A DNA stretch of 64,000 nucleotides from Sphyrna mokarran (taxonomy: Eukaryota), in the NCBI GenBank assembly GCA_024679065.1, contig JAGIQG010000023.1, positions 10,602,001 to 10,666,000 on the forward strand, read 5' to 3'. The notes under the pieces were generated by a model that saw nothing but the letters and a program-made list of their open reading frames with translations, ran no database searches and was not told where the DNA came from. Each line of letters starts with the position of its first letter. Positions within the stretch are counted from its first letter, which is position 1. Below are positions 13,707 to 49,900 of the stretch, piece after piece. The translations under genes were made by a program, and so were the position numbers.

Positions 13707-13746
13707 ATGAGGTTCAGCGCGTTGCTGCTCCTCACTTCCATATCAA
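13707..13746 (+). CDS. Gene B exon 1: signal peptide [13 protein letters not shown] (phase 1)
   Basis: Kozak-like GGGACCATG, hydrophobic 13-codon run, donor A|GTAAGA; phase matches the first Ig exon (A+TT = Ile). Confidence 0.85.
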
Positions 13747-15933: not shown

Positions 15934-18900
15934 TACATACCATTCACACACTATTCATATACACACACATGAACATACTTACCCACACACATAACACTCA
16001 GAACAGACAGACATGCATGCGCATAGACACACAACCACATACACACACACACATTCACCTACCCTCACACAAATACATGCACACACACTCATACACACAT
16101 ATATATACATACACATGCACACACACCCAAATAAAAATGTGAACACACATATATACACATTCTCACACAAACACACACATGCACACACACTCACACACAC
16201 ATCTACATAAATACATACACACACACCAGCACACACATTCNNNNNNNNNNNNNNNNNNNNNNNNNNNNNNNNNNNNNNNNNNNNNNNNNNNNNNNNNNNN
16301 NNNNNNNNNNNNNNNNNNNNNNNNNNNNNNNNNNNNNNNNNNNNNNNNNNNNNNNNNNNNNNNNNNNNNNNNNNNNNNATGGCATTCATGTACATGCACA
16401 CATACACGCACACATTCACATAAACACATGGGCGCACACACACAATCACACACACACAAACACATAAAAACACACACACATGCGCATACATACATACACA
16501 CACATGCATACAGACATACACACACACAAGCACACGTGCAAACACGTGCGCACACATGTGCAAGCACACACACATACAGATGCGCACATGCACATACACA
16601 CACAGACACTCATACGCATGCGTGCGCACACACACATACACACGTGCGCTCATATGCATGCGCACATGCAGACACACACATACTCACATAAACACACACA
16701 TGCATACACATGCATGCACGTACACACTGACACATATGAGCATACACACTCACATACACATGCACACACACATACATGCATACATGCACAGCATTCACAT
16801 ACACAAGCGCACACACACACATAACCACTCACACAAACTCACACACACTAATACACACACAAACAGATACACACAAACAGTCACATGCGTGCAAACACAC
16901 ATGCCTCTCTCGCTCCCATACAGACACACACAGTCTCACTCCCAAGGGCACACACCCTCTCAATCCCTCACACAGAAATGCAAGCACACTCTCTCATTCC
17001 CTTACACATAGGCCCTCACTTATTCTCAATCTCCTTCTCTCACACACACACACACATACACATACACACTCACACATTCTCCCTCTCTCTCTCTCTCTCT
17101 CCCTCTCACAAAAACACTATCCTTCTCTCACTCCCACACACACTCACTCACAGATACGGGGCTCTGCTCAACACAGTCTCATTCCTGAGCCTTGTGGCAA
17201 GTTCTCCTCCCCAGGACTTCCTCACCCTTGTCCCCAGGCCCAGTTTGGAGGTGCTGGAGTTGAATTCCATGCACTCTGACAGTAACACCCCACTGGTGGA
17301 AGGGCAGGTTGAGAGGCAGTTGTGGGACTCTTGGGATTTTAAATATGAATATTAATTATAAAAATGAGGAGTTACATTAAACCTTTACTGCTCACTTGTT
17401 AGGTCTCTGCTGGAGTATTGGGTACTCCAATAATGAGGATATAAAAAGGGGAGGCACAGCGGCACAATGATTAACACTGCTGCCTCACAGTGCCAGGGAC
17501 CTGGGTTTGATTCCTGGTTTGAGTCACTGTCTGTGTGGCATCTGCACGTTCTCCCTGTATCTACGTGGGTTTCCTCAAGGCGCTCCGTCCCACAGGCTGA
17601 AAATCTTTCTGGTTAGATGCATTCTCCCTCAGTATCCCTGAACAGGTTCCGTTGTGTGGCAACGAGGGTATTTTCACACCAACTTCATTGCAGTGTTCAT
17701 GTAAGTCTATTTGTGACTAATGAATAAACTTTACAATTCTGGGCACCACACTCGAGGAAGGAGGTTAAGGCCCTGGCAAGGGCACAGAGCAGATTTACCA
17801 GGATGGTGCCAGGGATTAGGGAATTTGGTTATGTGAACAGATTGGAGAAACTGGGATTCTTGTCCTTGGAAAAGAGCAGATTAAAGGGAAATCTAATCAA
17901 TATATTGAAAATGAGGAAGCGATTGGACATGTGTTTGGAGGGGACTAATGTGCATGGTTGTTAGGGAAGCTGGGCCTTGGGATTCAATTGACCAATAAAT
18001 TTCAATGAGCTGGCACAGACATGACAGGCTGAATGTCCTCCATCTCTGCTTTAAGATTCTTGATTCCAGTCCCACCCAGGACTTGTGTGTGTCCCCTTGT
18101 GAAGCACTGGCAGCATTGCACCAAAAGGATTGTCTACAATTGGGTGTTGGGATATTTCCAGCTTTCTTAAAACGTTATGTTTCACCAACAGTTTTACAGA
18201 CACAAACTGCCTCGATAGAGATGAAAGCTGCAGTGGGACAAACCATCACTGTGGAATGTCCAGGGGCAACACGGTACAAACACCGAGAAATCTGGTGGTG
18301 TAAGAGAACTTCAGCTAATTATTGCAATCTGATATTGAGCACTCATGGAGATAATATAAGGAATGATGGAAGAACATCGATCGTTAATACCAACGGTAAA
18401 ATTTCTGTAACCATAAAACAACTTCAGAAGACAGATACTGGAACATACTGGTGTGGAGTTCAAAATGAAAAAGATTTCAGTGTTTTAGATGTTATAACAC
18501 TGCAGGTTTTCTCAGGTAAGAATATTTCAGAAGATTGATTTTAGCTCTGATAATGTGACCCACTGCAATAACACAGGGCTGCTGCTGTGTGCTGTGTGAA
18601 CTCAGATTAATAAAATATCACAACTCCTCATGTACAAGTAGTGACTTCACATATTCCCATTTCTATCCATTTCCATTAACCTATTTCTGCATCCTTTCCA
18701 TCTATATTCTTACAAACCAAAAATCATATTCCACCCAAGGCTCTTTCATTGATTCTTTCATGCGATGAGAGTTTCTGGAACAGCAATTATTGAACATCCC
18801 TAATTATCCTGAATTGCCTTCTTGAATCACTACAGCTCATGAAGTGTACGTACACCCACAGTGATGTTAGGGAGGGAGTTCTGGGATTAAGCCAGTGACA

Positions 18901-21900
18901 GTGAAGGAACGGAGATAGATTCCCCAGTCTGGATGGTGTGTGTTTTGGAAGGAAGCTTGTCAGTGGTGATTGTCCCATGCACCCAATTCTCTCCTTCTAG
19001 GTGTTAGATGTCGCAGGTTTGGAAGGAGATTTAATTCATTGCTTTCTATCTCCATAGTAACTTGTAATAGATCGAGGGTGACTTAATGTGGCTTGAATCA
19101 ATAAATGTTTTATTGCCAACAATAGCCCATGCTTGCCTTCATCGGACTGGGTGTTGAGACGAAAAATTGGCAAATTATGTTACAGTTGTTTAAAACATTG
19201 GTTAGGCCACATTTTGAATATTGTGTCCAATTCTGGTTACCACACCATCAGAAGGATGTGGTGGCTTTGGAGAGAGTGCAGAAGAAGTTTACCAGCTTGT
19301 TGCCTGGTATGGAAGGTATTAGCGATGAGGAGAGATTGAATAAACTGGGATTGTTCTCACTGGAAATACACAGGCTGAGATGAACTAGTAGAAATTTATA
19401 AAATTATGACAGGTATAGATAAGAACATTTGGACTATTTCCCAGGGCAGAAAGGACAATTACAAGTGAGCACAAGTTCAAGGGGGGGAAGGTTCAGTGGA
19501 GATGTGCGGGGGAAGTTTTTTCACATTGGGGATGATGGGGGCCTGGAATACACTACCAAGTGAGATGATTGAGGCAATTACTTTAGTCGCATATAAGACG
19601 TATATCGATAGACACAGGAACAAACAGGGAATACAGGGTTATAAACGGTTGGTTTAGAGAGGCAAATATGAACAGCGCAGGCTTGGAGGGCCAAAGGGCC
19701 TGTTCATGTGCTTACCGTTCTTTGTTCTTTGTAATAAGAATATATATATCTATACAACAAGGTCAGAATGAATTACAATGTGAATCTACTATTCGGCTCC
19801 ATGGCTCCAACTGCAAAACATTCCTCAACCCGTGATGCACACCCTCTTGCCGATTGGCTCAGCTTCCAGCCTTGAGAATCCACAGGGCCTGACCTGACCA
19901 CATAACCCTCTAAACACTCCCCTACCCCAATTAAAGGACCACAATCCTTCCCCCTAAAATCTGAAATACAACAATGGAGGAATAAAGAACAGGAAAACTC
20001 AACAAAAATTTAAATCAGTCTGGAGGAATCCGGTCTCTGGTAGAGCTCCTCAATTCAGTGGTTTGCTCTCCTAAGCTTAAAGGGCCAGACGGGACAGACA
20101 AAAAGGCGGATTCATTAATCCAGGATCTGGTGGATCTTCAGCAGCTTCTGGTTCCTCAGTTTCCACAGCCAGCGGTTGCTGCGCTCCCACATTCTCCACC
20201 AAAATCTCAGTAACCAACCCCGGCAAAGTTTAACCAACTGCAGCGGGTGTCTGTTGATCCTCTGTGTCCATCACTCTCTTCTCCTTCAATGGTTTACCTG
20301 CTTCCTGAGCCGACAGCCTTGTATCTCCACAATGTCGGAGAACAGTCCTGTTCTCTTCATCAGCCACCCAGAACGGTATAAAATTTGGAAACAGGACTGC
20401 ATCCCCCACTTGAAATACAGTTTCCTTTTCTCGAATTACTGTTTTCCTTCTGAACGACTACCCAAGCCTGCATGCTCCCTGCTAAATTTGGGAATATCAT
20501 GTCCAATTGTGTTCTGAACTGGAATCCCATCTGCAACTCTGCTGGAGTCACCTCTGTGATCGTGTTTGGGGTACTGTTATAAGACAACAAAAAACTGTCC
20601 ATATATAAAGGAAGAGGATAATTTATTTGTTTTTTTATTGATGACTTGAATGTTTGTACCTCACGCTCCACTGGTCCATTTGAGGCTGAGTGGGAAGGTG
20701 TTGACCTCACATGGTGAATGCCATTAGGCTCCAGGAATTTTTGGAATTCTTCCACAGTGAATGGTGTGCCATTGTCCGACACAACCACTTCCGGAATGCC
20801 ATGGATAGCAGAGAATTTCCACACTCTATCAATTGTGCCCATGGTTGTTGGGGACTTCATCAACTGCACATCCAACCACAACTAATATAAGAAACATGTG
20901 ACCCCGAAATGGCCCGGGCAAAATCTACATTTAACTTCCACCAAGCTTGACCAGGCCATTCCCAATGATGCAAATTCACCTGTGATGGTAAAGCCCATTG
21001 ATCTTCGTAACTCGGGCATTGACGAACCATCTGTTCTGTTTCCTTGCCAATGCCTGGTGAAAACACATTTGCCTGGGGCCTTCATTCTACTTTGACCTGG
21101 AAAAGAGTGAGGCAGTTCTTGTAACAGGAATTAAAGATAAAGTCACAAGTAGGCTTACATTCACGCTGCAATGGAGTTACTATGAAAATCCCCTGGTTGC
21201 CACAATGCAGCACCTATTTGGGGACACAGAGAGAATTTAGCGTGGCCAATTCACCTAACCAGCACATCTTTGGAGTGTAGAAGGAAACCGGAGCACTTGG
21301 AGGAAACCCACACAGACACGGGAAGAACATGCAGACACGGCACAAACAGTGACCCAAGCTGGGAATCAAACCTTGATCCCTGACACTGTGACGCAGCAGT
21401 GCTAACCATTGTGCCACCGTACTTTCCTGGAGTCATCTCCCCAGGAGTGGTACAAGAAAGTCTAGCCACCTGCAGCGACACCCCATCTTCACAGGGTATC
21501 TCCATCCTTCTGCTTTGGTCGGGTTTGAGCTACTCTGACTTATATCACCATTTTTGCATTACCGTCTTCTTCACTTTTGACCACATCGGATCTATTTTTC
21601 TCCACAGTTTTATATGTTTTGCCAAGACTGGCAAGTTCCCTACCAGATACAGAGCCAGTATAATCTCTTGTGGAACCGGTGGTGGTGCGACTGTTTGCGG
21701 TAAAGACATCGGCTAATTGTGTCTGCTCGGGATATCTGCATTCCAGGGTGATGCTGAAACGTATAACTGTACGCTGCAAACAAAGGAGCCCATCTCTGCA
21801 TCCCTGCGGAGGCAATTAGAGGCACCGGCTTCTCTAAATAGACCTAACAATGGCTTCTCATCTGAAACTATTGTAAAATGTCACCCATAAATGATCACCT

Positions 21901-24900
21901 AGTTTTCCTCGTCTATTTGGGAGTATTCCGTTTCCACATTTGATCACGTCCCTCTCTCACATCCACACTCTCCCTCTCATTCTCTCTCCCTCTCACTCTC
22001 CTCCAAATCCTCTCTCTCCACACACTCTCTCCTCTTTCTCTCTCTCTCCTCTTTCTCTCTCTCTCACTCACTCTCTCCCTCATACACACTCTCTCTCACT
22101 CTCACACACACTCACTCACAGATACAGGGCTCTGCTCAATAGAGTCTCATTCCTGGGCCTTGTAGTCAGCTCTCTTCCCCAGGGCCTCCTCACACTTGTC
22201 CCCAGGGCCAGTTTGGAGACGCTAGAGTTGGGTTCCGATGCATTTTGACAGCAACACCACCCAGTGGAAGGATAGGTTGAGAGGCAGGGATTCTTGGGGA
22301 TGGCACGATGTCACAGTGGTTAGCACTGCTGTCTCACAGAACCAGGGACCTGTGTTCAATTCCTGGCTTGGGTCACTGTCTGTCTGGAGTCTGCACATTC
22401 TCCCCGTGTTTGCGTGGGTTTCCTCTGGGTGCTCCGGTTTGCTCCCACAGACTGAAAGGTGTGCTGCTTCAGTGTATTGGCCATCCTAAATTCTCCTGTG
22501 TACCTGAACAGGCGCTGGAGTGTGGCAACTAGGGGATTTCCACAGTAGCTTCAATGAGGTGTTAAGTTAAGCCTAATTCTGACAACATGATAAATAAATA
22601 AATAAATAAAATCGGAGTATTAATTAGAGATTTGAGGAGTTCCACTGAACTTTTACTAAGCACTGATTAGGTCTCTGCTGGAATACTGGGTTCAATCTGG
22701 GCACCACACTCGAGAAAGGAGGTTAAGGCCCTGCCAAGGGCACAGAGCAGATTCTCCAGGATGGTGCCAGGGATGAGGGAGTTTGGTTATGTGAACAGAT
22801 TGGAGAAACTGTGATTATTGTCCTTGGAACAGAGCAGATTAAGGGGAAATCTAATCGATGGATTGAAAATGAGGAAGAGATTTAAAAGACAGTTGGATAT
22901 GTGTTTGGAGGGGACCAACATGCAGGGTTGTGGGGGACGTTGGGCTGTGGGATTCAATTGGACAATAAATTTCAATGAGCTAGCACAGACATGACAGGCC
23001 AAATGTCCTCCATCTCTGCTTTAAGATTCTTGATTCCAGTCCCACCCAGGGCTTGTGTGTGTCCCCTTGTGAAGCACTGGCAGCATTGCACCAAAAGGAT
23101 TGTCTATAATTGGGTGTTGGGATATCTCCAGCTTTCTTAAAACATTATGTTTCACCAACAGTTTTACAGACACAAGCTGCCTCGATAGTGATGAAAGCTG
23201 CAGTGGGAGAAACCATCACTGTGGAATGTCCACAGACAACACAGTACCAATACCTTGAAATCTGGGGGTGTAAGCAAACTTCAGAAACTTATTGCAATCA
23301 TATATTGAGAACTTATGGAGTCAGAGTCAAGAATGTTGATGCAAGAACATCGATCGCTAATACCAACGATAAAATTTCCATAATCATACAACGACTTCAG
23401 GAGACAGATACAGGAACATACTGGTGTGGAGTTCGACATGAAAACTCTCTCCATGTTTTTGATGTTATAACACTGAAGGTTTTCTCAGGTAAGAATATTT
23501 CAGAAGATTGATTTTAGCTCTGATAATGTGATCCAGCTGCAATAACACAGGGCTGCTGCTGTGTGCTGTGTGAACTCAGATTAATAAAATATCACAACTT
23601 CTCATGTACAAGTAGTGACTTCCCATATTCCCATTTCTATCCATTTCCATTAACCTATTTGCAAATCCTTTCCGTTTATATTCTTACAAACCAAAAATCA
23701 TATTCCACCCAAGGCTCCTCTGTTGATTCTTTCATGTGATGTGAATGTCTGGAACAGCAATTACTGAACATCCCTAATTATCCTTGACCTGCCTTCTTGA
23801 ATCACTACAGCTCATGAAGTGTACGTACATCCACATTGCTGTTAGGGAGGGAGTTCCAGAATTGAACCAGTGTTAGTGAAGGAACGGCGATATATTCCCC
23901 AGTCTGGATGGTGTGTGTTTTGGAGGGAAGCGTGTCAGTGGTGGCGTTCCCATGCATCCGCTTCTCTCCTCCTCCTAATTCCTCTTCCTTTAATTCATTG
24001 CTTTCTATCTCCATAGTAACTTGAAATAGCTCAAGAGCCGCTCAATGTGGCTTGAATCAATAAAGGCTTTATTTCCGACAATATGGCATGCTTGCCTTCA
24101 TTAAACTGACTATCAAGTATTAAAGTTGGCAAATTATGTTACAGTTATATAAAATATTAGTTAGGCCACATTTAGAACGCTGTGTCCAATTTTGGTGACC
24201 ACAAAACCAGAAGGATGTGGAGACTATGGACAAAGTGTGGAAAAGGTTTACCAGGATGTTGCCGGGTATGGACGGTACTAGCTATGAGGAGAGATTGAAT
24301 AAACTGGGATTGTTCTCCCTGGAAAGATGGAGGCTGAGGGACGGCCTGGTAGAAGTTTATAAAATTATGAGCATATAGATCGGGTGAACAGTTGAAAGCT
24401 TTTTCCCAGGACAGAAAGGACAATTACAAGAGGGCACAAGTTCAAGATATGGGGGGAAAGGTTCAATGGAAATATGCAGGGGAAGTTTTTTATACAGGGG
24501 GTGGTGGAGATCTGCAATTCATTGTAAATGAGGTGGTTGAGGCACATTTAAGACTTATATTGATAAGCTTACGAACAAACAGGGAATAGAGGGAGAGAAG
24601 CAATGGGTCTAGATAGGTAAAGATGATTGGCAAAGGCATGGAAGGGCCGAAGGGCCTGTTCCTGTGCTGAACTGTTCTTTGTCCTTTATAATTAAGAAAT
24701 TATATACACACAACAGGGTCAGACTGAATTACATTGCAAATCTAACACTCAGCTCCCTGGCTCCAATTGCAAGACATTCTCAACCCCTGGTACCCTCTTA
24801 CCCATTTGTTCAGCTTCCAGTCTTGAGAATCCACACAGCCTGATACAATCACATGACCTCGTATACACTCTCCCACCCCAATTAAAGGGCCACAATCCTT

Positions 24901-27900
24901 CCCCCTAAATCTGAAGTACAATTACGGAGGAATAAAGAACAGAATTAGTGTTTTAACTGAAAAGAGTAAGAGAAATGGAAAGCCCATTAAAGGTTTAATC
25001 AGTCTGGAAGAATCCGATCTCTGGTAGAGTGCCTCAGTTCAGGGGTTTGCTCTGTTAAGTTTAAAGGACCAGACAGGATAGACGAGAAAGGCAGACTCAA
25101 TAATCCAGGATCTGGTGGATCTTTAGCAGCTTCTGGTTCCTCAGTCTCCACAGCCACGTGCTGCGCTCCCACGTTCTCCAGCAAAATCCCAGTAACCAAC
25201 TCCGGCAAAGTTCAACCAACTGCAGGGAGCGCCTGATGATCCTCTGTGTCCATCACTCTCTCCTCCTTCGATGGTCCACCTGCTTCCTGAGCCGACAGCC
25301 TTGTATCTCCACAACTTTACCAGCCACTCAGGAACAGGCCTGGTGTAAAATTTGGAAACAAGACTGCATCCCCGCTTAAAACACTCTGTTTCCTTTTCTC
25401 CTTCTGAAAGACTAGCCTAGCCTGCACACTCTCTGCAAAATTTCGGAATATCATATCCAGTTGTGTTCTTAACTGGCATCGCATCAGCATCTCCACTGGA
25501 ATAACCCCTGTGCTCACGTTTGGGGTGATGTTATAAGACAACAAAAAACTGTCCATACGTAAAGGTAGAGGACAGTTTATTTGTTTTTTTATTGATGGCT
25601 AGCATGTTTGTACCACAGACTCTACTGGTTCATCTGAGGCTGGGTGGGAAGGTGTTGACCTCACATCAACATTAGGCTCCAGGAACTTTTGGAATTCTTC
25701 CACAGTGAATGATGTGCCATTGTCTGACACAACCACTTCCAGAATGCCATGGATAGCAGAGAATTTCCACACTCTATCAATGGTGCCCATGGTTGTTGGG
25801 GACTTCATCAACTGCACATCCAACCACAACTAATATAAGAAACATATGACACAGAAATGGCCCGGCAAAATCTACATTTAACTTCCACCAAGGTTGACCA
25901 GGCCATTCCCAATTATGCAAACTCACCTGTGATGGTAAAACCCATTGATCTTCGTAACTCGGGCATTGATGAACCATCCGTTCTATTTCTTTGCCAATGC
26001 CTGGTGAAAACACATATGCCTGGGGCCCTCATTCTACTTTGACCTGGATGAGAGTGGTGTAGTCCTTCTAACAGGAATTAAAGTTAAAGTCACAAGTAGT
26101 TACATTCGCACTGCAGTGGAGTTACTATGAAAATCCTCTAATTGCCACAATCCAGCGCCTGTTTGGGTACACTGAGAGACAATTTAGCGTGGGCAATTCA
26201 CCTAACCAGCACATCTTTGGAGTGTAGAAGGAAACCGGAGCACCTGGAGGAAACCCACACAGACACGGGAAGAACATGCAGATATGACACAGGCCGGGAA
26301 TCGAACCCTGGTCTCTGACACTGTGACGTAGCAGTGCTAACCACTGTGCCACCATACCTTCCTGGAGTCATCTCCCCAGGAGTGGTGCAAGAAATTCTAG
26401 CCACCTGCAGCAACACCCCATCTTCACAGGGTATCTCCATCCTTCTACTTTGGTAGGGTTTGAGCTCCTCTGACTTATATCACCACTTTTGCGTTACCGT
26501 CTTCTTCACTTTTGACCACACCGGATCTATTTTTCTCTACTGTTTTATATGTTTTGCCAAGACTGGCAAGGACTCTACCAGATGCAGATATTAATCTCTT
26601 GTAGAACCGGTGGTGCGACTGTTTGTGGCAATGACAACGGCTAATTGCGTCTGCTCGGGATATCTGCATTCCAGGGTGATGCTGAAACGTATAACTGTAC
26701 GCTGCAAACAAAGGAGTCCATCTCTGCATCCCTGCGGAGGCAATTAGTGGCACCGGATTCTCCAAATAGCCTTAACAATGGCTTCTCATCTGAAACTATT
26801 GTAAAATGTCACCCATAAATGATCACCTAGTTTTCCTCATCTATCTGGTAGTATTCCGTTTCCACATTTGATCATGTCCTTCTCTCACACACACTCTCCG
26901 TCTCCCTCTCTCTCCCTCTCACTCTCCTCCAAATCCTCTCCCTCCACATACAATGCACACACACTCTCTCTCTTTCTCTCTCTCTCACTCACTCTCTCCC
27001 TCATACACACTCTCTCTCACTCCCACACTCACTCACAGATACAGGGCTCTGCTCAACACAGTCTCATTCCTGGGCCTGGAGCAGCTCTACACCGCAGGCT
27101 CTCCTCTCATGCTTGTCCCCAGGCCCAGTTTGGAGATGCTGGAGTTGGGTTCCAATGCACTCTGACAGCAAAACCCCACTGGTAGAAGGGCAGGTTGAGA
27201 GGCAGTTGTGGGATTCTTGGGGATGGCACAATGTCACAGTGTTAGTGCTGCTGTCTCACAGCACCAGAGGCCTGGGTTGAATTCCTGGCTTGAGTCACTC
27301 TCTGTGTGGAGTCTGCACATTCTCCCTGTATCTGTGTGGGTTTCCTCTGGGTGCTCTGGTTTCCTCCCACAGACTGAAGGACATGCTGGTTCAATGCATT
27401 GGCCATCCTAAATTCTCCCTCAGTGTACCTGAACAGGCGCTGGAATGTGACGACTACGGGATTTCCACATTAGCTTCATTGCGATGTTAATGTAAGCCCA
27501 CTTCTGACAGTAAGATAAATAAATAAATAAAATTGGAGTATTAATTAGAGAGATTTGGTCTCTGCTGGAGTACTGGGTTCAATTCTGATCATCACACTCA
27601 AGGAAGGAGGTTAAGGCTTTGGCAAGGGCACAGAGCAGATTTACCAGGATGGTGCTTGTAATGGGGGATTTTGGGTATGTGGACAGATTGGAGAAACTGT
27701 GATTATTGGGCTTGGAACAGAACAGATTAAAGGGAAATCTAATTGATGAATTGAAACTGAGGAAGGGATTTAAAAGGCAGTTGGATATGTGTTTGGAGGG
27801 GACTAATGTGCAAGTTTGTGGGGGAAGTTGGGCTGTGGGATTCAATTGGACAATAAATTTCAATGAGCTAGCACAGACACGACAGGCTGAATGTCCTCCA

Positions 27901-28952
27901 TCTCTGCTTTAAGATTCTTGACTCCAGTCCCACCCAGAACTTGTGTGTGTTCCCTTGTGAAGCACTGGCAGCATTGCACCAAAAGGATTGTCTACAGTTG
28001 GGATAACTCCTGCTTTCTTAAAACGTTATGTTTCACCCACAGTTTTACGGACACAAACTGCCTCGATAGTGATGAAAGCTGCAGTGGGAGAAACCGTCAC
28101 TGTGGAATGTCCACAGGCAACACGGCACAAACAACGAGAAATCTGGTGGTGTAAGGAAACTTCAGATAATAATTGCAATCTGATATCGCGCACTCATGGA
28201 GATAGTATCAGAAATGATGATGGAAGAACATCGATTGTTAATACCGATGGCAAAATTTCTGTAAATATACTACAACTTAAGGAAACCGATACAGGAACAT
28301 ACTGGTGTGAACCTCCATATCAAAACACATCACAGATTTCAGATGTTATATTACTGAAGGTTTTCTCAGGTAAGAATCTTTCAGAAGATTGATTTTAGCT
28401 CTGATAATGTGATCTGGCTGCAATAACACAGGGCAGCTGCTGTGTGAACTCAAATTAATAAAATATCACAACTCCTCGTGCAAATAGTGACCTCCCATAT
28501 TCCCATTCCTATCCATTTCCATTAACCTATTTCTGTATCCTTTCCTTCTTTATTATCTTCCCTTTATACTCTTACAAAGCAAAAATCATATTTATCTAAA
28601 ACCTCTTTTATTCTTTCATTCATGGGATGTGCCTAAAAGACCTTTTATTACCCATCTCTAATTACCCTTCAGAAGGTTGTGGTGAACTGCCTTCTTCAAC
28701 TGCTGCAGCCCATGTGGTGTATGTACACCCACAGTGCTGTTAGAGAGGGAGTTCCAGGACTGAGCCAGTAACAGTGAAGGAACAGGGATAGATTCCCCAG
28801 TCTGGATGGTGTGTGTTTTGGAGGGAAGCTTGTCAGTGGTGATGTTCCCATACACCCACTTCTCTCCTCCTTCTAGATGCTAGATTTGGAAGGAGATTTA
28901 ATTCAAAGCTGCGTGTCTCGAACCAATAAAGGCTTTATTGCCAACAATACAG

Positions 28953-28986
<34 letters not shown>

Positions 28987-31900
28987 GACAAGGTCAGACT
29001 GAATTACAATGTGACTGTACAACTTGGCTCCCTGGCTCCAACTGCGAGATGTTTCTCAACCCATGGTATACACCTTCTTGCTGATTGGCTCAGCTTCTGG
29101 CCTAGACAATCCATAGTGTCCGGCGGGATCACGTATCTCTCAGGAATGCTTTTCCCCCTAACGAGACACCCTGCTCCAAAATTATCCCTAATTTCTGTTG
29201 ACATCCAGACAAACAGCTCTACAATTCTATAAAACACATAAGCACCTGAGTAATAGACACACACACACACACGCACGTGCGCAGACACACACACGCACAT
29301 GCACGTGCACACACACCTTCATTTACAAACCATATTCTACATATCTGAACTCAGATAGACTTCCCCATTCCCCAAACAACCTCCACCTAAAACAAATCTA
29401 CAAGGAAAATCTAGACTCTCAATACCAGGAGGGTGATCCAGTTTGGGAATTGCCTGCCTGGTTTAGCAAAGACAGATAAACTGCCTTTATGAAGGTTTCT
29501 GCAATAAGTTAGCTGTAAGACTTTAGAAGTGGCCTCCCTTATTAGCTAGCTTGCTGTTAGAGATTATCCTGGCCTTCCTGTGACATGTTAAAACCAATCT
29601 TCCTGTGACGTATTAAAAATAACCTTCCTATAAGTGTTAAAACTGACCTGTCTGCTTTTGTGAGAGTTGGTGATTATACCCTGGTTATCTTTGATCCTGC
29701 TCACTGTATTATGGATTGTCTGTCTATCCCACATTCCTTGATCCTCGAAAATTAGGATCTGTATGCCACTCCTGATACCACAGATATTTTGGTAAACAAT
29801 TTCCTGATAATAGGGCCATTTACGTCTGATCTTATCTAGATGGTTGCTAGGCAACGTGTCTCATCAACACCTTTGAACATGAGTTCCTGCTGTTGCCAGG
29901 CAGATTCTCCCTATTTTGCCAATGGCACTGCCGCCCAACCACCCAGGAGGCTTCAATGGGCTCCAATCCCACCGGCGAAGCAATCACATCTTCCCTGTTG
30001 ATGGGGAACCATACCTTATCTTGCAAGTAAGGACCTCAGCTGGTGTAAGGTAAGGGCGAGTGAGCCCAGACAATAGCATGTGGTACTCACTAATTACACA
30101 CTGAGTCTCAAAGATTCCTCTCACTCCAATCACCGCTCTGCCCAACCCCTCCATCCAGACACCACTTCCCCCACTCTTGGATTGAGTCAGTCTTCTTCCC
30201 TCATAAGGGCCACGGGCCCAGTGCAGGAATGGGTTACAAAGTGAACCTGGGTGTCCTCCGGCTGGCACGGGCAAGATGGGCCAAATGACCTATTTCTGTG
30301 CTGTAATTTTCTGATGGTTCTTTCCCACTTCCTCCTCCCTCTATTCCCCTCTCCTGCACCCCACTCTTCTTCTCTCCTGTCTCCATCTCCCACTCAACAC
30401 CAGGGCCACTGACACTCGATCCTGCCATCCTGAATACAGCGTAATAGTAATGCATACATTAATAAAATGAACTAAGAACTACTGGGGATCTGGTAGTGGT
30501 TTTGAACATCTAGACTGATGGTTTTTTTGTACTAATAAAAAAAAATTAAATTCAGGTTTTATTTAATTCATTTCCTTGCATTTTGGTGCAGGTTTTCTGA
30601 GTGAATTCAATGCCTTTGATCACTTTTAACATCAAATGTCTGTTGATCATTTTTTTTGCAAAAGTAATGTTAACATTTTTTGTAGCTTTTGATCTCAATG
30701 GATGAAATTTAACCAGTCTGGGGTTTATCATTGACCAGAATCTGTACTGGACCAGCCATGTAAACACTGTGGCTACTAGAGCAGAACAAAGGCAAGGAGG
30801 AATCCTAAAGTGAGAAACCCGACCACCTGGTTCCCCAAGGCTGACCATAGAACCGTAGAAATGATACAGCACAGAAGGGGGCCATTCAGCCCATCTTGTC
30901 CATGCCAACCCAAAGACACTCAGGTGCCCTTTCTAATCCCATCTTCATGCACACAGCCCATAGCCCTGTAGCTGACAGCACTTAAGGTGCAGATCCAGGT
31001 ACTTGTTAACAAGTTTAGAGTTCCTGCCTCCATCACCAACTCAGGCACTGAATTCCATTCCCATCATCTACAAGCCACAACTCAAGAATGAGATGTAATA
31101 CTCTCCATTTGCCTGGATGAGTGCAATGACAACAACATTCAAGAAGGTCAACACTGTCCAGGACAGAACAGCCCACTTGTTTGCTATCCCTTCGACAAAA
31201 CGCTCAATCCCTCTCCCGTTGATGAACAGTGGCAGTGTACCACCTACAAGTTGCCCCACATGAACTTACTAAGATTACTTAGGCAGCACCTTGCAAACCC
31301 ACGACCACCAACATCAAGAAGGACAAGAGCAACAAAGACCTGGGAACACCTTTCACTTGGAGATTCCCTTCCAAGTCACTTAGCATCCTAATTTGGAAAT
31401 ATATTGCTGTTCTTTTATTACCACTGTGTCTAAACCCTGGAATTCTCACCCTAACAGCACAGTGGGTATACTTTGCAATGAAGACTCAAACTCTGTTTGT
31501 CCTACAAGTAACAAACTCACATTGCTTGTAAGTCTTTAGTGTTCATCCAAACTAGACCCAGTTCCTGTAGAATAGGCCTGGAGTTGGATACTATCCGTCA
31601 ACTGTGAAAATTCACCCAAACACGCTGAGAAATTTCACTGCAGCTACAGAAAATAGAAATGGTTTATTAAACTTGGACACAAACACCTCAGAAATTTTAA
31701 ATAAAAGTTTTAGAATAAGCAAAAATTTAATACAACAGCTTTTAAGAATTACACTGTATTTTAAGACTATAATCCTTTTTGTATTTTAAAAATAGAAAAT
31801 ACTATTGACATTTCCAATGTTTGGTTAATGTATCATGTTTTGGGCAATGAAAAATGTTCAGTTTTTCACCATTTTCAACTTTCAATGACTCTTTTTCTTA

Positions 31901-34794
31901 TTTACCAACAGATAAATGGGACCCAATCCGATCAAACATCAGTGGTGATGTGGGAAATGCCGCCACTATACCGTGTCTGTTCACGGACAGGGAGAAACTC
32001 TATAAGAAATTCTTGTGTAAAGCGACCGCTGTAAATAAATGTATTACTATTGCCAGCTCTGATGGAGTTACAGAGAATCAGAATAATGAGAAAGTTTCAA
32101 TCACTGTTAATAATGCTCATAATTTTACCGTTACCATGACTAACATAGACAAAGACGACAAAGGAGAGTATTGGTGTGGAGCTCAGAATATCAGTGACGT
32201 AAAGATCGTAGCGATTAAAAATCTGACAATTACTAAAGGCAAGGACAAATATACAATTATTATAATTCAATCAGTATTGTATAAAACTCACAAAACAATA
32301 ACAATTGGTCAGTGCTGTCCTTCATGTTTTATACAAGCCTATCAACCTATCGCATCTCAATCTTGCAGCATATCCGCTTCTAGTCTTTTCCTCCTCAGTA
32401 AGTTTCTCTCCATTACCCCTAAACATATATATGATATTTGCCATAATTGCATCTTATGAAGCAGGTAAACACAGAAACATAGGAAATGGGAGCAAGAATA
32501 CTCCTTCAGAATGCCTCAGATTCACTAAACAAGACGCAGCAATGTCTATAAGCCGGACATTTTTAAGATCCTCTATTCACCAATCTTAACTGAGTAAGAG
32601 TTTTTTGAAACTTACCTGGCACTGCGTTGGCCGTCATGGAGTTTCACTGCTCCATATTCCTCTCTCTCTGCCACTCTAAGTGATCTTTGCAACAGCTGAG
32701 AGACTTGAACCACCCGTGCCCTGAATCACCCGACCGCATTCCAGCAAGGTCTGAAATCCAACAGGACTGGATTTGAGCTATTAAACCCAATTCCATATTG
32801 AACAAGTTCCACCTTCGAATAACTCTCTGGGTAAAGAGTTTCGAAAATTTCACTGATACTAATAGTAACCACTCATAATAAAAATACATTGAAACTTTGA
32901 GCTATACCTCACAAAATATTGTATTTCCAGCACTATTAGCCCCTTCTGAAACCCCCTCAGAAACCCAGCTTCTCACCTATTGACTCTGTCTACATTTCCT
33001 GCAGCCTTGGAAAAACAGCTAGCGTCATCAAGGACCTTAGGCACCCCGGACATTCTTCCATTTTCTTGCATTGGGAAAAAGATACAAAACTCTCAGGTCA
33101 CATGCCAGAAGCCGAATCAAGAACAGCTTCTTCCCAGCTGCCATTAGACTATTAAATGGATCGACCTCATATTAAGCTGATCTTTCTCTACTCTCTAGTT
33201 ATGGCTGTGACACCACATTCTGCACTCTCTCCTTCCCCTCTCTATGAACGGTATGCTTTGTCGGTCTAGTGCACAAGAAATAATACATTTCACTGCATGC
33301 TAATACATGTGACGATAATATATCAAATCAACACCTTCTCCTCAGCTCACTTTTCAATATGTTAGTTAAGGACACAGAAATCTATTCAAAAAAAATCACT
33401 CTTCATTCATCCTGTATTTGACATGAGGAAACTTAACCAGTCTTCAGAATGAATTAAATCCCTGCCCCCCCCCGACCCGCCATCCCCTCATTCACAACAC
33501 CCAGGCTCACTTTCCATAAGTACTGTCTGCTGAAGAGAATTGCGGTGGTTACCAGTTCCTTATTGAATTATTCATTCATGTTTATTTGCTACAATAGGAA
33601 AATCAGAAGTTTCCAACAAGTTTACCTCAAGGTAAGACTGGAATTTGCATTGTATAAATAACAATTGTTGCGCCATTCTCAATGAAGCCACAGTTGATAA
33701 ATAATCTTACTTTCCCCTCACATCATGGTGAACAATGCAATATCTTTAAATTACCACAATCCACATAGCGGTAATCTTGTGCCAGCTTTTTTCTCATACT
33801 TCTGCTATTGATTGTCTTCCCATTTAAGACACACAACATCGAAGTCAGGGAGCAAAGTTCTTGCATGTCCTGGCAATAATCATTCAGTACAATACTATGT
33901 CAGGATTGCATTGCAACTTTCTGCTGACTCCTCCACCAGGCAGTTCCCGTCACCTCGGCCGGATGTTTCATTCATTCAGGGGATGTGGGCGCTGCTGATA
34001 TTTTTCCTGTGCACACACAGCCCAATGACTCTTTAATGTGAGTTCCAGTTGAAAATCAGCCCACAGGTTCTACATACTGTCTGTGCTTTCAATATAATGT
34101 TGCACACATTTTGGGAGGTTGAGTATTGTCATAGAATCCCTGCAACACAGAAGAGTCCATTCGGCCCATCAAATCAGCACCGACTCTCTGCCACGTCCTC
34201 ACCTCTGCCCGATCCCCCAAAACCCACTCATGTACCATGGGCAATCTGCCTAACCTGCTCATCATTGGACACTCAGGGGCAATTATAGCCTGGCCAATCC
34301 ATATAAACTGCATATCTTTGGACTGTGGGAAGAAACCAGAGAACCTGGTGGAAGCCCACGCAGATACAAAAGAATATGCAGATTCCGCACAGACAGTGAT
34401 TCAAGCCAGGAATTGAACCCAGGTCCTCGGGGCTGTGAGGCAGCAGTACTAACCACTGTACCACAGTGTTTGTCATACAAGTTTATCACATAAACTCTGG
34501 GATAAGTTATCTTGTATTAATTATAGCTCCTTGTTTTGTCAGAGACGTTCTGTTGGAGATATGGAGGATATTCCGCTGGCTGATCTTTAGTGCTCTGGCT
34601 GCTTGCACTGTTTCAGTCACATGCTATGCACATTTTGCAAAGGCCCCAGGTATAATATTTTAAATCTCTTTCCTCTAATATTTATACATAATTAACTTCA
34701 ACCTAAAAGCTTAGGCATTTTGAAAGCTGCTGAAAAGACACAGCAAAAAACTCCACAAGGAAATGACTCCTCCTCGAGAAATCTAACCCAATGA
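13707..34794 (+). CDS. Gene B: complete multi-exon CD300/pIgR-like (CMRF35/MDIR-like) receptor; leader + 4 V-type Ig domains + stalk + Arg-containing TM + short tail; ~521 aa
   Basis: Exons 13707-13746, 18192-18515, 23162-23488, 28043-28369, 31912-32238, 33598-33631, 34543-34649 and 34715-34794 join in frame (phases 1,1,1,1,1,2,1; 1566 nt including stop). All have AG acceptors and GT donors except one GC donor. Ig domains show C...WxC/FLC-x7-C...DxGxYWC. The last exon is the least certain. Confidence 0.8.
14300..14598 (+). mobile_element. tRNA-derived SINE in intron 1 (copy ~44474-44772)
   Basis: A/B boxes and AATAAATAAACTTT tail. Confidence 0.88.
15290..15840 (+). mobile_element. CR1 LINE 3' end in intron 1 (copy ~45464-46025)
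   Basis: [32 protein letters not shown]. Confidence 0.9.
15845..17150. repeat. Degenerate (CA)n/(CT)n microsatellite tract containing a 138-N gap (16241-16378)
   Basis: Direct inspection; source of the His/Thr and Cys/Val ORFs. Confidence 0.97.
17452..17732 (+). mobile_element. SINE upstream of D1, inserted in an old CR1 fragment (copy ~47618-47898)
   Basis: GGCACAGCGGCACAATGATTAACACTGCTGCC head; interrupts GGGT..CAATTCTGGGCACCACAC. Confidence 0.85.
18192..18515 (+). CDS. Gene B Ig V-domain exon D1 (324 nt)
   Basis: Acceptor ccaacag|, donor TCAG|GTAAGA; encodes TITVEC...[11 protein letters not shown]...DTGTYWCG, with the extra C-C' disulfide typical of CD300/pIgR/TREM domains. Confidence 0.92.
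19125..19732 (+). mobile_element. CR1 LINE 3' end nested in the Gypsy LTR (copies ~24083-24690, 49291-49898, 53895-54500, 59285-59890)
   Basis: [36 protein letters not shown]...[11 protein letters not shown] (CR1 ORF2 C-terminus); TTCTTTG-type tail. Confidence 0.9.
21130..21420 (-). mobile_element. SINE nested in Gypsy pol (copies ~26078-26355, 50965-51090 partial, 56330-56620, 61280-61558)
   Basis: GTCACAAGTAGGCTTACATT tail and GCAGTGCTAACCATTGTGCCACC head on the + strand. Confidence 0.88.
22300..22610 (+). mobile_element. SINE upstream of D2 (same insertion at ~27224-27530, 52094-52400, 57500-57810, 62430-62740)
   Basis: SINE head directly after GGATTCTTGGGGA; (TAAA)n tail. Confidence 0.88.
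23162..23488 (+). CDS. Gene B Ig V-domain exon D2 (327 nt)
   Basis: Same splice sites and phase as D1; TITVEC...[11 protein letters not shown]...DTGTYWCG. Confidence 0.92.
24046..26870 (-). mobile_element. Gypsy remnant, cassette copy (LTR 24046-24894)
   Basis: Homologous to 19087-21935; [16 protein letters not shown] integrase motif. Confidence 0.88.
28043..28369 (+). CDS. Gene B Ig V-domain exon D3 (327 nt)
   Basis: cccacag| acceptor, TCAG|GTAAGA donor; TVTVEC...[11 protein letters not shown]...[10 protein letters not shown]. Confidence 0.9.
28913..29130 (-). mobile_element. Partial Gypsy LTR after D3, without the CR1 insertion
   Basis: CAATAAAGGCTTTATTGCCAACAATA joins directly to the (TA)n/ACAAGGTCAGACTGAATTACAATG segment. 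Confidence 0.75.
31912..32238 (+). CDS. Gene B membrane-proximal Ig V-domain exon D4 (327 nt, divergent type)
   Basis: Polypyrimidine tract + ccaacag|; [11 protein letters not shown]...[13 protein letters not shown]...DKGEYWCG; several N-x-S/T sequons; donor is AAG|GCAAGG (GT in the gene A remnant). Confidence 0.9.
33598..33631 (+). CDS. Gene B 34-nt stalk micro-exon ([11 protein letters not shown])
   Basis: caatag| acceptor and strong AAG|GTAAGA donor; converts phase 1 to phase 2, which is the phase the TM exon needs. Confidence 0.75.
34543..34649 (+). CDS. Gene B transmembrane exon ([36 protein letters not shown])
   Basis: ttgttttgtcag| acceptor in phase 2; hydrophobic helix with Arg near its extracellular end; CAG|GTATAA donor, or read-through GIIF* ending at 34663. 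Confidence 0.8.
34715..34794 (+). CDS. Gene B candidate terminal cytoplasmic exon ([26 protein letters not shown])
   Basis: Phase-1-compatible AG at 34713-34714 (an in-frame alternative AG lies 12 nt downstream), stop at 34792-34794, AATAAA at 34863-34868. The intron would be only 65-77 nt with a weak pyrimidine tract. Confidence 0.45.
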
Positions 34795-40800: not shown

Positions 40801-41149
40801 ATCTCACTTGCTCTATCGGACTCACCTTAGAAGCCATGCTTTTAACATGTAAGTGTAACCCACTTTCAGATGTCTTCCTCAGTTTTACAATTCCATACCC
40901 TATTGTTCTCTACTTTATTGAGCTAAATATCTGGTTGCCTTGCTGCTGAGCTAATTCATGTATCAAAACTTTCCAGACAACTACAATACCCTTTTACCCA
41001 ATTCTTTAAACGTTATTTTATCAGGATTTCTTGCATCATTATTTCATCCAATTCTTACATCTTTACTTTATTCAAGCTTAAGTTTCAAGTATTAAAAGTT
41101 TATTTGAAGTTTATTTATTAATGTCACAAGGAGGCTTAATTTAACACTG

Positions 41150-41448
41150 GAGAAAATACACAACTCTCTAACAATGCTCAGGATCCCCTTCACACACATT
41201 GTTAGCCACTTTAACACTTGAATAGCAGGTTAGATGTAAGGATTCGCATTCTAATCAGCAATCTCTGACTGTCTGTGCTGATGTGTGCTATTGCTGACCA
41301 GAACACTGCACTTGCCTGATGAAGACACGGGAGTGTTGAAAGCTCGCCATTTTACTATCAAATAAATCGGTTGGATTAATAATTGGTGTTGCTAAATTCT
41401 TACTGAGTTCTTACCACTCCAATCCAACGCCGGCATCTTTACATCATG
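41150..41448 (+). mobile_element. Penelope-like terminal-repeat fragment with hammerhead ribozyme core; present only in copy 2
   Basis: CTGATGA(41316)-A-GACAC-GGGA-GTGTT-GAAA(41341), then AATAAA and TCCAACGCCGGCATCTTTACATCA, the same terminus as the 6396 element. Confidence 0.65.
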
Positions 41449-43880: not shown

Positions 43881-43920
43881 ATGAGGTTCAGCGCGTTGCT
43901 GCTCCTCACTTCCATATCAA
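43881..43920 (+). CDS. Gene C exon 1: signal peptide [13 protein letters not shown]
   Basis: Identical to 13707-13746. Confidence 0.85.
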
Positions 43921-46900: not shown

Positions 46901-49900
46901 TATGAGCATACACACTCACATACACATGCACACACACATACATGCATACATGCACATCATTCACATACACAAGCGCACACACACACATAACCACTCACAC
47001 AAACTCACACACACTAATACACACACAAACAGATACACACAAACAGTCACATGCGTGCAAACACACATGCCTCTCTCGCTCCCATACAGACACACACAGT
47101 CTCACTCCCAAGGGCACACACCCTCTCAATCCCTCACACAGAAATGCAAGCACACTCTCTCATTCCCTTACACATAGGCCCTCACTTATTCTCAATCTCC
47201 TTCTCTCACACACACACACACATACACATACACACTCACACATTCTCCCTCTCTCTCTCTCTCTCTCCCTCTCACAAAAACACTATCCTTCTCTCACTCC
47301 CACACACACTCACTCACAGATACGGGGCTCTGCTCAACACAGTCTCATTCCTGAGCCTTGTGGCAAGTTCTCCTCCCCAGGACTTCCTCACCCTTGTCCC
47401 CAGGCCCAGTTTGGAGGTGCTGGAGTTGAATTCCATGCACTCTGACAGTAACACCCCACTGGTGGAAGGGCAGGTTGAGAGGCAGTTGTGGGACTCTTGG
47501 GATTTTAAATATGAATATTAATTATAAAAATGAGGAGTTACATTAAACCTTTACTGCTCACTTGTTAGGTCTCTGCTGGAGTATTGGGTACTCCAATAAT
47601 GAGGATATAAAAAGGGGAGGCACAGCGGCACAATGATTAACACTGCTGCCTCACAGTGCCAGGGACCTGGGTTTGATTCCTGGTTTGAGTCACTGTCTGT
47701 GTGGCATCTGCACGTTCTCCCTGTATCTACGTGGGTTTCCTCAAGGCGCTCCGTCCCACAGGCTGAAAATCTTTCTGGTTAGATGCATTCTCCCTCAGTA
47801 TCCCTGAACAGGTTCCGTTGTGTGGCAACGAGGGTATTTTCACACCAACTTCATTGCAGTGTTCATGTAAGTCTATTTGTGACTAATGAATAAACTTTAC
47901 AATTCTGGGCACCACACTCGAGGAAGGAGGTTAAGGCCCTGGCAAGGGCACAGAGCAGATTTACCAGGATGGTGCCAGGGATTAGGGAATTTGGTTATGT
48001 GAACAGATTGGAGAAACTGGGATTCTTGTCCTTGGAAAAGAGCAGATTAAAGGGAAATCTAATCAATATATTGAAAATGAGGAAGCGATTGGACATGTGT
48101 TTGGAGGGGACTAATGTGCATGGTTGTTAGGGAAGCTGGGCCTTGGGATTCAATTGACCAATAAATTTCAATGAGCTGGCACAGACATGACAGGCTGAAT
48201 GTCCTCCATCTCTGCTTTAAGATTCTTGATTCCAGTCCCACCCAGGACTTGTGTGTGTCCCCTTGTGAAGCACTGGCAGCATTGCACCAAAAGGATTGTC
48301 TACAATTGGGTGTTGGGATATTTCCAGCTTTCTTAAAACGTTATGTTTCACCAACAGTTTTACAGACACAAACTGCCTCGATAGAGATGAAAGCTGCAGT
48401 GGGACAAACCATCACTGTGGAATGTCCAGGGGCAACACGGTACAAACACCGAGAAATCTGGTGGTGTAAGAGAACTTCAGCTAATTATTGCAATCTGATA
48501 TTGAGCACTCATGGAGATAATATAAGGAATGATGGAAGAACATCGATCGTTAATACCAACGGTAAAATTTCTGTAACCATAAAACAACTTCAGAAGACAG
48601 ATACTGGAACATACTGGTGTGGAGTTCAAAATGAAAAAGATTTCAGTGTTTTAGATGTTATAACACTGCAGGTTTTCTCAGGTAAGAATATTTCAGAAGA
48701 TTGATTTTAGCTCTGATAATGTGACCCACTGCAATAACACAGGGCTGCTGCTGTGTGCTGTGTGAACTCAGATTAATAAAATATCACAACTCCTCATGTA
48801 CAAGTAGTGACTTCACATATTCCCATTTCTATCCATTTCCATTAACCTATTTCTGCATCCTTTCCATCTATATTCTTACAAACCAAAAATCATATTCCAC
48901 CCAAGGCTCTTTCATTGATTCTTTCATGCGATGAGAGTTTCTGGAACAGCAATTATTGAACATCCCTAATTATCCTGAATTGCCTTCTTGAATCACTACA
49001 GCTCATGAAGTGTACGTACACCCACAGTGATGTTAGGGAGGGAGTTCTGGGATTAAGCCAGTGACAGTGAAGGAACGGAGATAGATTCCCCAGTCTGGAT
49101 GGTGTGTGTTTTGGAAGGAAGCTTGTCAGTGGTGATTGTCCCATGCACCCAATTCTCTCCTTCTAGGTGTTAGATGTCGCAGGTTTGGAAGGAGATTTAA
49201 TTCATTGCTTTCTATCTCCATAGTAACTTGTAATAGATCGAGGGTGACTTAATGTGGCTTGAATCAATAAATGTTTTATTGCCAACAATAGCCCATGCTT
49301 GCCTTCATCGGACTGGGTGTTGAGACGAAAAATTGGCAAATTATGTTACAGTTGTTTAAAACATTGGTTAGGCCACATTTTGAATATTGTGTCCAATTCT
49401 GGTTACCACACCATCAGAAGGATGTGGTGGCTTTGGAGAGAGTGCAGAAGAAGTTTACCAGCTTGTTGCCTGGTATGGAAGGTATTAGCGATGAGGAGAG
49501 ATTGAATAAACTGGGATTGTTCTCACTGGAAATACACAGGCTGAGATGAACTAGTAGAAATTTATAAAATTATGACAGGTATAGATAAGAACATTTGGAC
49601 TATTTCCCAGGGCAGAAAGGACAATTACAAGTGAGCACAAGTTCAAGGGGGGGAAGGTTCAGTGGAGATGTGCGGGGGAAGTTTTTTCACACTGGGGATG
49701 ATGGGGGCCTGGAATACACTACCAAGTGAGATGATTGAGGCAATTACTTTAGTCGCATATAAGACGTATATCGATAGACACAGGAACAAACAGGGAATAC
49801 AGGGTTATAAACGGTTGGTTTAGAGAGGCAAATATGAACAGCGCAGGCTTGGAGGGCCAAAGGGCCTGTTCATGTGCTTACCGTTCTTTGTTCTTTGTAA

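Follow-up and report, generated by a model that had tools for sequence, protein, structure and literature searches.

A likely hybrid V exon in the tandem domain array of a CD300/pIgR-like receptor gene from Sphyrna mokarran

In a 64,000-nt stretch of the Sphyrna mokarran genome (GenBank assembly GCA_024679065.1, contig JAGIQG010000023.1, positions 10,602,001 to 10,666,000 of the forward strand; hereafter the window), comparison of the sequence with itself revealed a unit of ~30.2 kb repeated in tandem, with ~99% identity between the repeats. Each unit carries one CD300/pIgR-like gene, a run of in-frame exons made up of a leader of 40 nt, several related exons for variable (V) immunoglobulin domains, a V exon of a second type (D4), a stalk of 34 nt and a transmembrane exon of 107 nt. 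The related V exons are D1, D2 and D3 in the first gene (copy A) and D1, D1b, D2 and D3 in the second (copy B), which runs past the window end. An earlier note on this DNA had proposed that the internal domains D1b and D2 are D3/D1 chimeras. Our comparisons point to D1 instead: this exon is likely the hybrid, D3-like through the loops equivalent to complementarity-determining regions (CDR) 1 and 2, and D1b/D2-like from about codon 56-74 through CDR3. We consider it probable that the tandem array gains and loses modules through unequal crossover, with shorter exchanges patching it and D1 as a hybrid exon.

The seven related V exons to which the earlier note refers were confirmed in the window, all on the + strand: D1A (18192..18515, 324 nt), D2A (23162..23488, 327 nt) and D3A (28043..28369, 327 nt) in copy A, and D1B (48358..48681, identical to D1A), D1b (52955..53281), D2B (58363..58689) and D3B (63250..63576) in copy B. 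D1b, present in copy B only, is closest to D2 (10-11% apart), with D1 at 15%, and D1b and D2 group as sisters. All five domains tested score above the Pfam cut-off for a V-set immunoglobulin domain, and all seven exons encode C36 and C44, a putative second cysteine pair in the C-C' strands. Such a pair is a trait of CD300/TREM/pIgR-type V domains. The predicted model of D1 (predicted local distance difference test score 89.6) has TREM2, CD300 and TREM-1 as its closest folds and places strands at residues 8-13, 18-21, 32-38, 44-51, 55-57, 61-66, 69-74, 83-90 and 95-106; the CDR-like loops were assigned from this model and an alignment to pIgR domain 1. At codon 35, just before the C-strand cysteine, D1b and D2 have glycine in place of a tryptophan kept in 16/16 aligned Mustelus and scyliorhinid domains. 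Between copies A and B, D2 and D3 together differ at six bases, which give five residue differences, and D3B has an additional cysteine at codon 49 compared with D3A.

Breakpoint tests were run on 12 query-parent triplets, and only D1 passed the 12-fold correction (p 0.0005 with parents D2B/D3, p 0.0015 with D1b/D3); three other triplets reached nominal p values of 0.02-0.04 and failed it. Both D1 triplets gave p 0.006 in a Fisher test on fixed exon halves, and p 0.0006 and 0.002 with one vote per codon. In simulations on a single tree, with gamma or loop-shaped rates, the top score was reached in 0.6-0.7% of 4000 runs. Among codons that encode the same residue in D1 and D3, silent differences are found at 0/38 in the N half and 6/33 in the C half (p 0.008); for the five remaining domain pairs p was 0.18-1.0. 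By clock likelihood, the arrangement (D1,D3)(D1b,D2) had an advantage of 4.5 units over codons 1-55; over codons 56-108 an arrangement with D3 as outgroup led by 4.4 units, and in the near 3' flank by 15-17 units. D1 would be the sequence that changes partners, because D3 is deep against all others on the right, whereas D1b and D2 are deep against D1 plus D3 on the left.

Protein trees with shark outgroups joined D1 and D3 (90/90) for codons 1-73, and this clade was rejected for codons 74-108 (approximately unbiased (AU) test, p 0.003). These AU trees used 17 rows, after removal of both Hemiscyllium rows because of their long branches; the domain parser had missed three A domains in which the YWC motif is altered. 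The whole-domain protein tree did not resolve the window domains against Mustelus. D1 and D3 share the residues I55 and G60, which are derived relative to Mustelus, and their loops are identical at 7/10 positions in CDR1, 10/14 in the CDR2 region and 0/11 in CDR3, where D1 matches D2 at 5/11. The D1 and D1b introns are 5-10% apart over the first 600 nt and 9-26% apart over the next 1.6 kb, which fits an exchange tract ending there. In D1A, the switch of ancestry would lie within 18359..18412 (+ strand), corresponding to alignment codons 56-74 and the predicted C''-D-E strands.

Taken as a mechanism, modules of ~5 kb, each an exon plus an intron, would stand in tandem, and their number would be changed by unequal crossover. 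An exchange tract beginning in the C''-E strands of D1 and extending some hundreds of bases into the intron would have combined a CDR3 region of the internal type with a D3-like framework of CDR1 and CDR2, and diversifying selection on the loops would have followed.

Several points weigh against a hybrid D1. The breakpoints in the clock-likelihood and outgroup-tree tests were picked post hoc, and the AU p value of 0.003 is one of 18 clade checks. The D1+D3 clade with 90/90 was not starred, and the AU tests on the N part rejected no alternative, including a D1b+D2+D3 clade (p 0.24, 0.37). The outgroup evidence consists of shark proteins only. Estimates of the D1 breakpoint disagree (codons 55/56, 60-64 and 73/74), and D1 requires at least two switches because its far 5' flank, judged by its short interspersed element (SINE), is not D3-like. 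The simulations model variation in rate among sites, not lineage-specific bursts of selection, and 15 of the 16 exon changes on the internal branch fall in codons with a residue difference.

Selection of this kind is the core of the main rival explanation, which we regard as unlikely. It holds that whole exons were duplicated with breakpoints in introns only, and that the apparent switch reflects two bursts of selection, one on CDR1-CDR2 along the D1b/D2 stem and one on CDR3 of D3, together with conversion limited to introns. The concentration of internal-branch changes in residue-changing codons fits it, as does the excess of exon replacement divergence over near-flank divergence (p<0.02 in four of the five pairs tested, p 0.053 in the fifth), which also agrees with the selection step proposed for a hybrid D1. 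One unrooted topology dominates the 5' flank, the exon and the long terminal repeat (LTR), and the sole crossover resolved to the base, described below, is intronic. Ancestry evidently does change along the module, with D1-only versus D3-only sites going from 42/80 to 14/75 (permutation p 0.0003). The change point peaks at codons 55-56, and the profile mass is spread over the 5' intron (39%), the exon (47%) and the 3' intron (14%), so that 53% lies outside the exon. However, the long D3 branch runs on into the intron (30 D3-only against 4 D1-only sites) and is visible at the silent codons 56, 64, 69 and 81. Nor do selection bursts sit easily with the lack of silent D1-D3 differences in the N half or with the derived residues I55 and G60 common to D1 and D3.

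In the reading of the earlier note, D1b and D2 would have taken their 5' halves, with CDR1, from D3 and their 3' halves, with CDR3, from D1. Recombination between modules is the right process, but the domain is probably wrong, and we find this version improbable. Its claim that D2 starts like D3, at the same length of 327 nt, is literally true; yet V9, E16, Q24 and the ungapped position 58 are found in 9/9 Mustelus domains, so that the shared start is ancestral and D1 is the derived one at the exon start. D1b has the E9 of D1, and relative to the Mustelus domains no derived residue is common to D2 and D3 alone. Within the initial 163 nt of the exon, D1-D3 is the pair with the smallest difference (9.2%, against 14.7% for D2-D3 and 14.1% for D1b-D3). 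Sites in the 5' exon half join D1 with D3 16 times, D2 with D3 seven times and D2 with D1 seven times (one-sided p 0.047); in the D1b set, 17 sites join D1 with D3 and nine D1b with D3 (p 0.084). Likewise, CDR1-like identity to D3 is 4/10 for D2 and 6/10 for D1b, against 7/10 for D1. Exon-only breakpoint tests of D2 and D1b as D1/D3 hybrids did not reach significance (p 0.34-0.47 and p 0.10, respectively). The power of these tests is limited if the event is old, since a score as low as that of D2 occurred in 24% of chimera runs under the older setting. When a mid-exon D3/D1 chimera was simulated at two age settings without lineage-specific selection, the observed D1-D3 excess appeared in 0 and 1 of 4000 runs.

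The bases of the 5' flank are neutral (39 vs 36 sites; 5 vs 6 polarised sites) and do not favour D3. Polarising the flanks with paralogous repeat copies was of little use: it left the 5' side unresolved at 5 vs 6, and on the 3' side substitutions were uninformative and only an indel helped. To retain D3-derived 5' halves in D1b and D2, an extra exchange between D1 and D3 would be required to wipe out the signal. The observations that speak for the earlier reading are the upstream SINE that D1b and D2 have in common with D3, the grouping of their 3' half and flank with D1, the peak of the whole-module change point at codons 55-56, and the AU tests, which leave the D1b+D2+D3 clade standing.

On the 3' side the earlier note fared better. 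D2 does end like D1, matching it at G89-V90 and T103, where D1b reads G-D and V-I, and the 7-nt flank difference is real. The motif GKNISED, also given as a shared ending, is intron read-through beyond the GT donor and not exon, with a single base separating it from D3. D2 and D1b match D1 at 22-23 sites and D3 at 8-9 across the second half of the exon; in the near 3' flank they match D1 at 32-33 sites and D3 at 5-6 (32 vs 5 for D2). D1, D1b and D2 also have in common a deletion of 14-15 nt, derived relative to the single outside repeat copy available as outgroup. These site counts and the shared derived deletion support a 3' ancestry of the internal modules in common with D1.

A third explanation would bring the CDR1-CDR2 core of D1b and D2 from a paralogous gene, for instance a partner with an immunoreceptor tyrosine-based inhibitory motif (ITIM) in its tail, as represented by Mustelus P0005. 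Across residues 36-64, the identity of D1b is 79% with domain 2 of P0005, compared with 57% with D1 and 59% with D3. However, trees do not join the two (log-likelihood 6-9 lower, the AU test neither supporting nor rejecting), several of the shared residues look ancestral, and the short Mustelus branches raise all identities, making an outside donor very improbable.

The transposon markers on which the earlier note relied were for the most part found as it had described them. The names SINE and CR1 are ones we presume from sequence features, no tool having returned them; Rfam gave no relevant match for the SINE, and Pfam matched none of three CR1-like open reading frame pieces. Directly behind the motif quoted in the earlier note, a SINE is present in 5/5 D1b, D2 and D3 copies (22301..22607 upstream of D2A, + strand; also 27224-27528, 52094-52399, 57501-57809 and 62431-62735) and missing in 2/2 D1 copies, whose own SINE sits ~112 nt further on in both (17448..17733, + strand; 47614-47899 in copy B). 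The D1b, D2 and D3 SINEs are 8-13% apart between domains, compared with 21-28% in comparisons with or among independent copies, and represent one insertion; that of D1, at 22-25% from them, is independent. HE1, a tRNA-derived shark SINE, is listed in PMC3747384.

Downstream of D1A lies an LTR (19087..19943, - strand; same insertion at 24046-24894, 53858-54698 and 59247-60097) containing a presumed CR1-like insert (19125..19732, + strand; also 24084-24689, 49291-49898, 53896-54500 and 59287-59892). A decayed integrase-like remnant of the LTR element follows (20360..20881, - strand), whose match to the Pfam family rve, at E 3e-6, falls short of the curated cut-off. As the earlier note had stated, the CR1 sits at the same junction in 5/5 D1, D1b and D2 copies and is absent from D3A; what probably does not hold is a reading of the LTR of D3A as a clean empty site. 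This solo-type LTR (28914..29168, - strand) ends in a 7-bp terminal inverted repeat that differs from the 5-6-bp one of the other copies, is 27-30% diverged from them while the adjacent flank is only ~12-18% diverged, starts ~40 nt off their position and is followed by neither a polypurine tract nor an internal region; it therefore probably goes back to a separate insertion. The corresponding site of D3B falls beyond the window end, leaving D3A to represent D3. The safer wording is that D1, D1b and D2 have the whole downstream LTR element in common and D3 is without it.

Both markers lie in the same intron, the LTR/CR1 near its start and the SINE near its end. They occur together in 5/5 internal introns, and neither the intron before D1 nor that after D3 carries both; all internal introns derive from a single intron that was duplicated. 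The marker pattern results from an unequal crossover at any point from the SINE site to where the shared 3' homology ends. The permissible span is ~1.4 kb (554 nt of 5' intron, the 327-nt exon and ~530 nt of 3' intron), of which the exon is less than a quarter. The pattern arises with or without a cut exon because both markers lie in the duplicated intron, and they support a hybrid module, not a hybrid exon; a crossover within the exon cannot be placed from them. This is a general pitfall, since markers in a duplicated intron always give internal modules a look that is last-like upstream and first-like downstream.

The sliding-window trees suggested in the earlier note cannot decide the question either. 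Informative sites for the dominant unrooted topology are 8:3:2 in the 5' flank, 17:4:4 in the exon and 13:1:0 in the LTR, and the 3' flank, at 5:6:5, favours none. With four domains the check is weak because D1|(D3,(D1b,D2)) and D3|(D1,(D1b,D2)) are the same unrooted tree, and unrooted trees were dropped as a test for a switch.

The claim that the array changed by unequal exchange is supported by the D1-D2 intron of copy A, which is a clean two-part hybrid, likely produced by unequal crossover. Up to position 20689, 286 of 290 diagnostic sites match the D1-D1b intron of copy B, and from 20726 onwards 190 of 195 match its D1b-D2 intron. The junction falls within a 36-nt identical tract (20690..20725), whose parent tracts at 50856-50891 (D1B-D1b intron) and 55891-55926 (D1b-D2B intron) are 5035 bp apart; copy A is without those 5035 bp, the whole of D1b included. 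The crossover took place in mid-intron, within the decayed integrase remnant and at a distance of over 2 kb from both neighbouring exons, and made no hybrid exon. Two further differences are an extra insert of 442 nt (55403-55844) found only in the D1b-D2B intron and a deletion of 481 nt near 50960 found only in the D1B-D1b intron; the hybrid intron of copy A has neither, in agreement with the junction position. D1b is old, being 10% diverged from D2, so its loss from copy A is the likely direction of change.

Separately from the exon question, the difference between three and four domains, and perhaps the A/B duplication too, might be a product of the assembly or of alleles placed in tandem, which we consider quite unlikely. 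Gaps of 138 N stand at homologous places (16241-16378 and 46409-46546) in CA-rich repeats one unit apart. The segment 15033-16012 has 71 substitutions and 25 indels relative to its copy, compared with 0.2-0.3% in neighbouring kilobases, and resembles low-quality gap filling. On the two sides of the junction, divergence between copies A and B is just 0.21% and 0.65%. However, the junction lies in gap-free sequence, the gene tail and the next leader are contiguous between gaps, and the upstream copy has its own tail, 93% identical and D4-deleted. Even if the copies were alleles, the difference in domain number would stay biological.

Taken together, the locus may vary in the germline at two levels: intronic crossovers would add or remove V domains, so that three- and four-domain versions coexist among 99%-identical genes, and exchange within an exon would graft the CDR3 of one lineage onto the CDR1 and CDR2 of another, as in D1, with selection acting on the loops. 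We put this two-level reading forward tentatively, as somewhat short of an even call.

The remaining exons of copy A, all on the + strand, are the leader (13707..13746; 43881-43920 in copy B), located by tblastn with Mustelus proteins and followed by a GT donor; the second-type V exon D4A (31912..32238), with a GC donor at 32239-32240 where the D4 remnant of the upstream paralog has GT; the stalk (33598..33631); and an arginine-bearing transmembrane exon (34543..34649), which has 86% identity with P0003, a Mustelus protein with a short tail. A final coding exon was looked for and not found in the window gene. The gene likely encodes a paired immune receptor of the short-tailed, activating type, the activating role being presumed from what is known of the family. 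Upstream, 598-2663 is the tail of a further paralog, ~93% identical to 29833-32540, in which a deletion of ~630 nt takes most of the D4 exon; past 2663 identity climbs to ~99.7%, which suggests another recombination junction. A 300-nt segment at the start of a SINE (41149-41448) is missing from the upstream copy and has no second match in the window.

Mustelus and Scyliorhinus supply the best sequence relatives, which bear the automatic annotation "polymeric immunoglobulin receptor-like" and point to a carcharhiniform shark; a search of cluster representatives found no close relative beyond them. Mustelus asterias P0003, P0001 and P0005 and Scyliorhinus P0002 and P0156 likewise have two V-domain types, a stalk and a transmembrane exon, with 59-69% identity to D1 (the longest models among P0001, P0002, P0003 and P0005 may be fused annotations). 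Domain number varies among such shark proteins as well (AB, AAB, ABABAB, AABAABAB), and short-tailed and tyrosine-motif-tailed forms occur; three to four A-type domains in a row were seen in the window gene only and in none of the 17 shark proteins examined. The CDR1 region of D2 differs from that of pIgR domain 1 in the alignment, whereas a true pIgR is marked by a conserved domain-1 CDR1 and by binding or transcytosis of polymeric immunoglobulin. No PIGR was found in the shark genomes of 2014 (PMC4016189), and MDIRs are multigene activating and inhibitory receptors of cartilaginous fish (PMC3031540). By its description, the MDIR family resembles CD300, TREM and pIgR in having a V domain with the second C-C' cysteine pair; no protein named MDIR was among the sequence-search matches of the window domains.

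Comparable exchanges have been described in other receptor families. In the KIR cluster (PMC7516082), the number of head-to-tail genes rises and falls through unequal crossover, and the breakpoints lie in intragenic transposable elements, as does the one at 20690-20725; those events fuse genes, whereas the shark locus loses a module within the exon array of one gene and has a V exon apparently cut by exchange. Conversion tracts cover the ligand-binding V-domain exons of CD300A/CD300C (PMC12447643) and SIGLEC11/16 (PMC5701461), but exchange there is between genes and keeps ligand preference alike, whereas exchange between tandem domains in the shark would recombine loops. In Dscam1 (PMC12431208), exon number changes by misaligned (staggered homologous) recombination in a tandem exon array, a subject also touched on in PMC3364881, the source of the citation of Lee et al. 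2010. The Dscam1 exons are mutually exclusive, in contrast to the shark exons, which are likely spliced in series as in the Mustelus models.

A search of the open literature, with subscription journals and supplements outside its range, found no paper on domain-number variation or exon exchange in shark CD300/pIgR-like receptors. KIR, Siglec, CD300 and Dscam have made such mechanisms familiar; here they appear in a little-studied shark family. For these barely described receptors, the locus offers a domain loss resolved to the base, and in an innate-type V domain it offers a candidate for loop recombination that can be put to the test.

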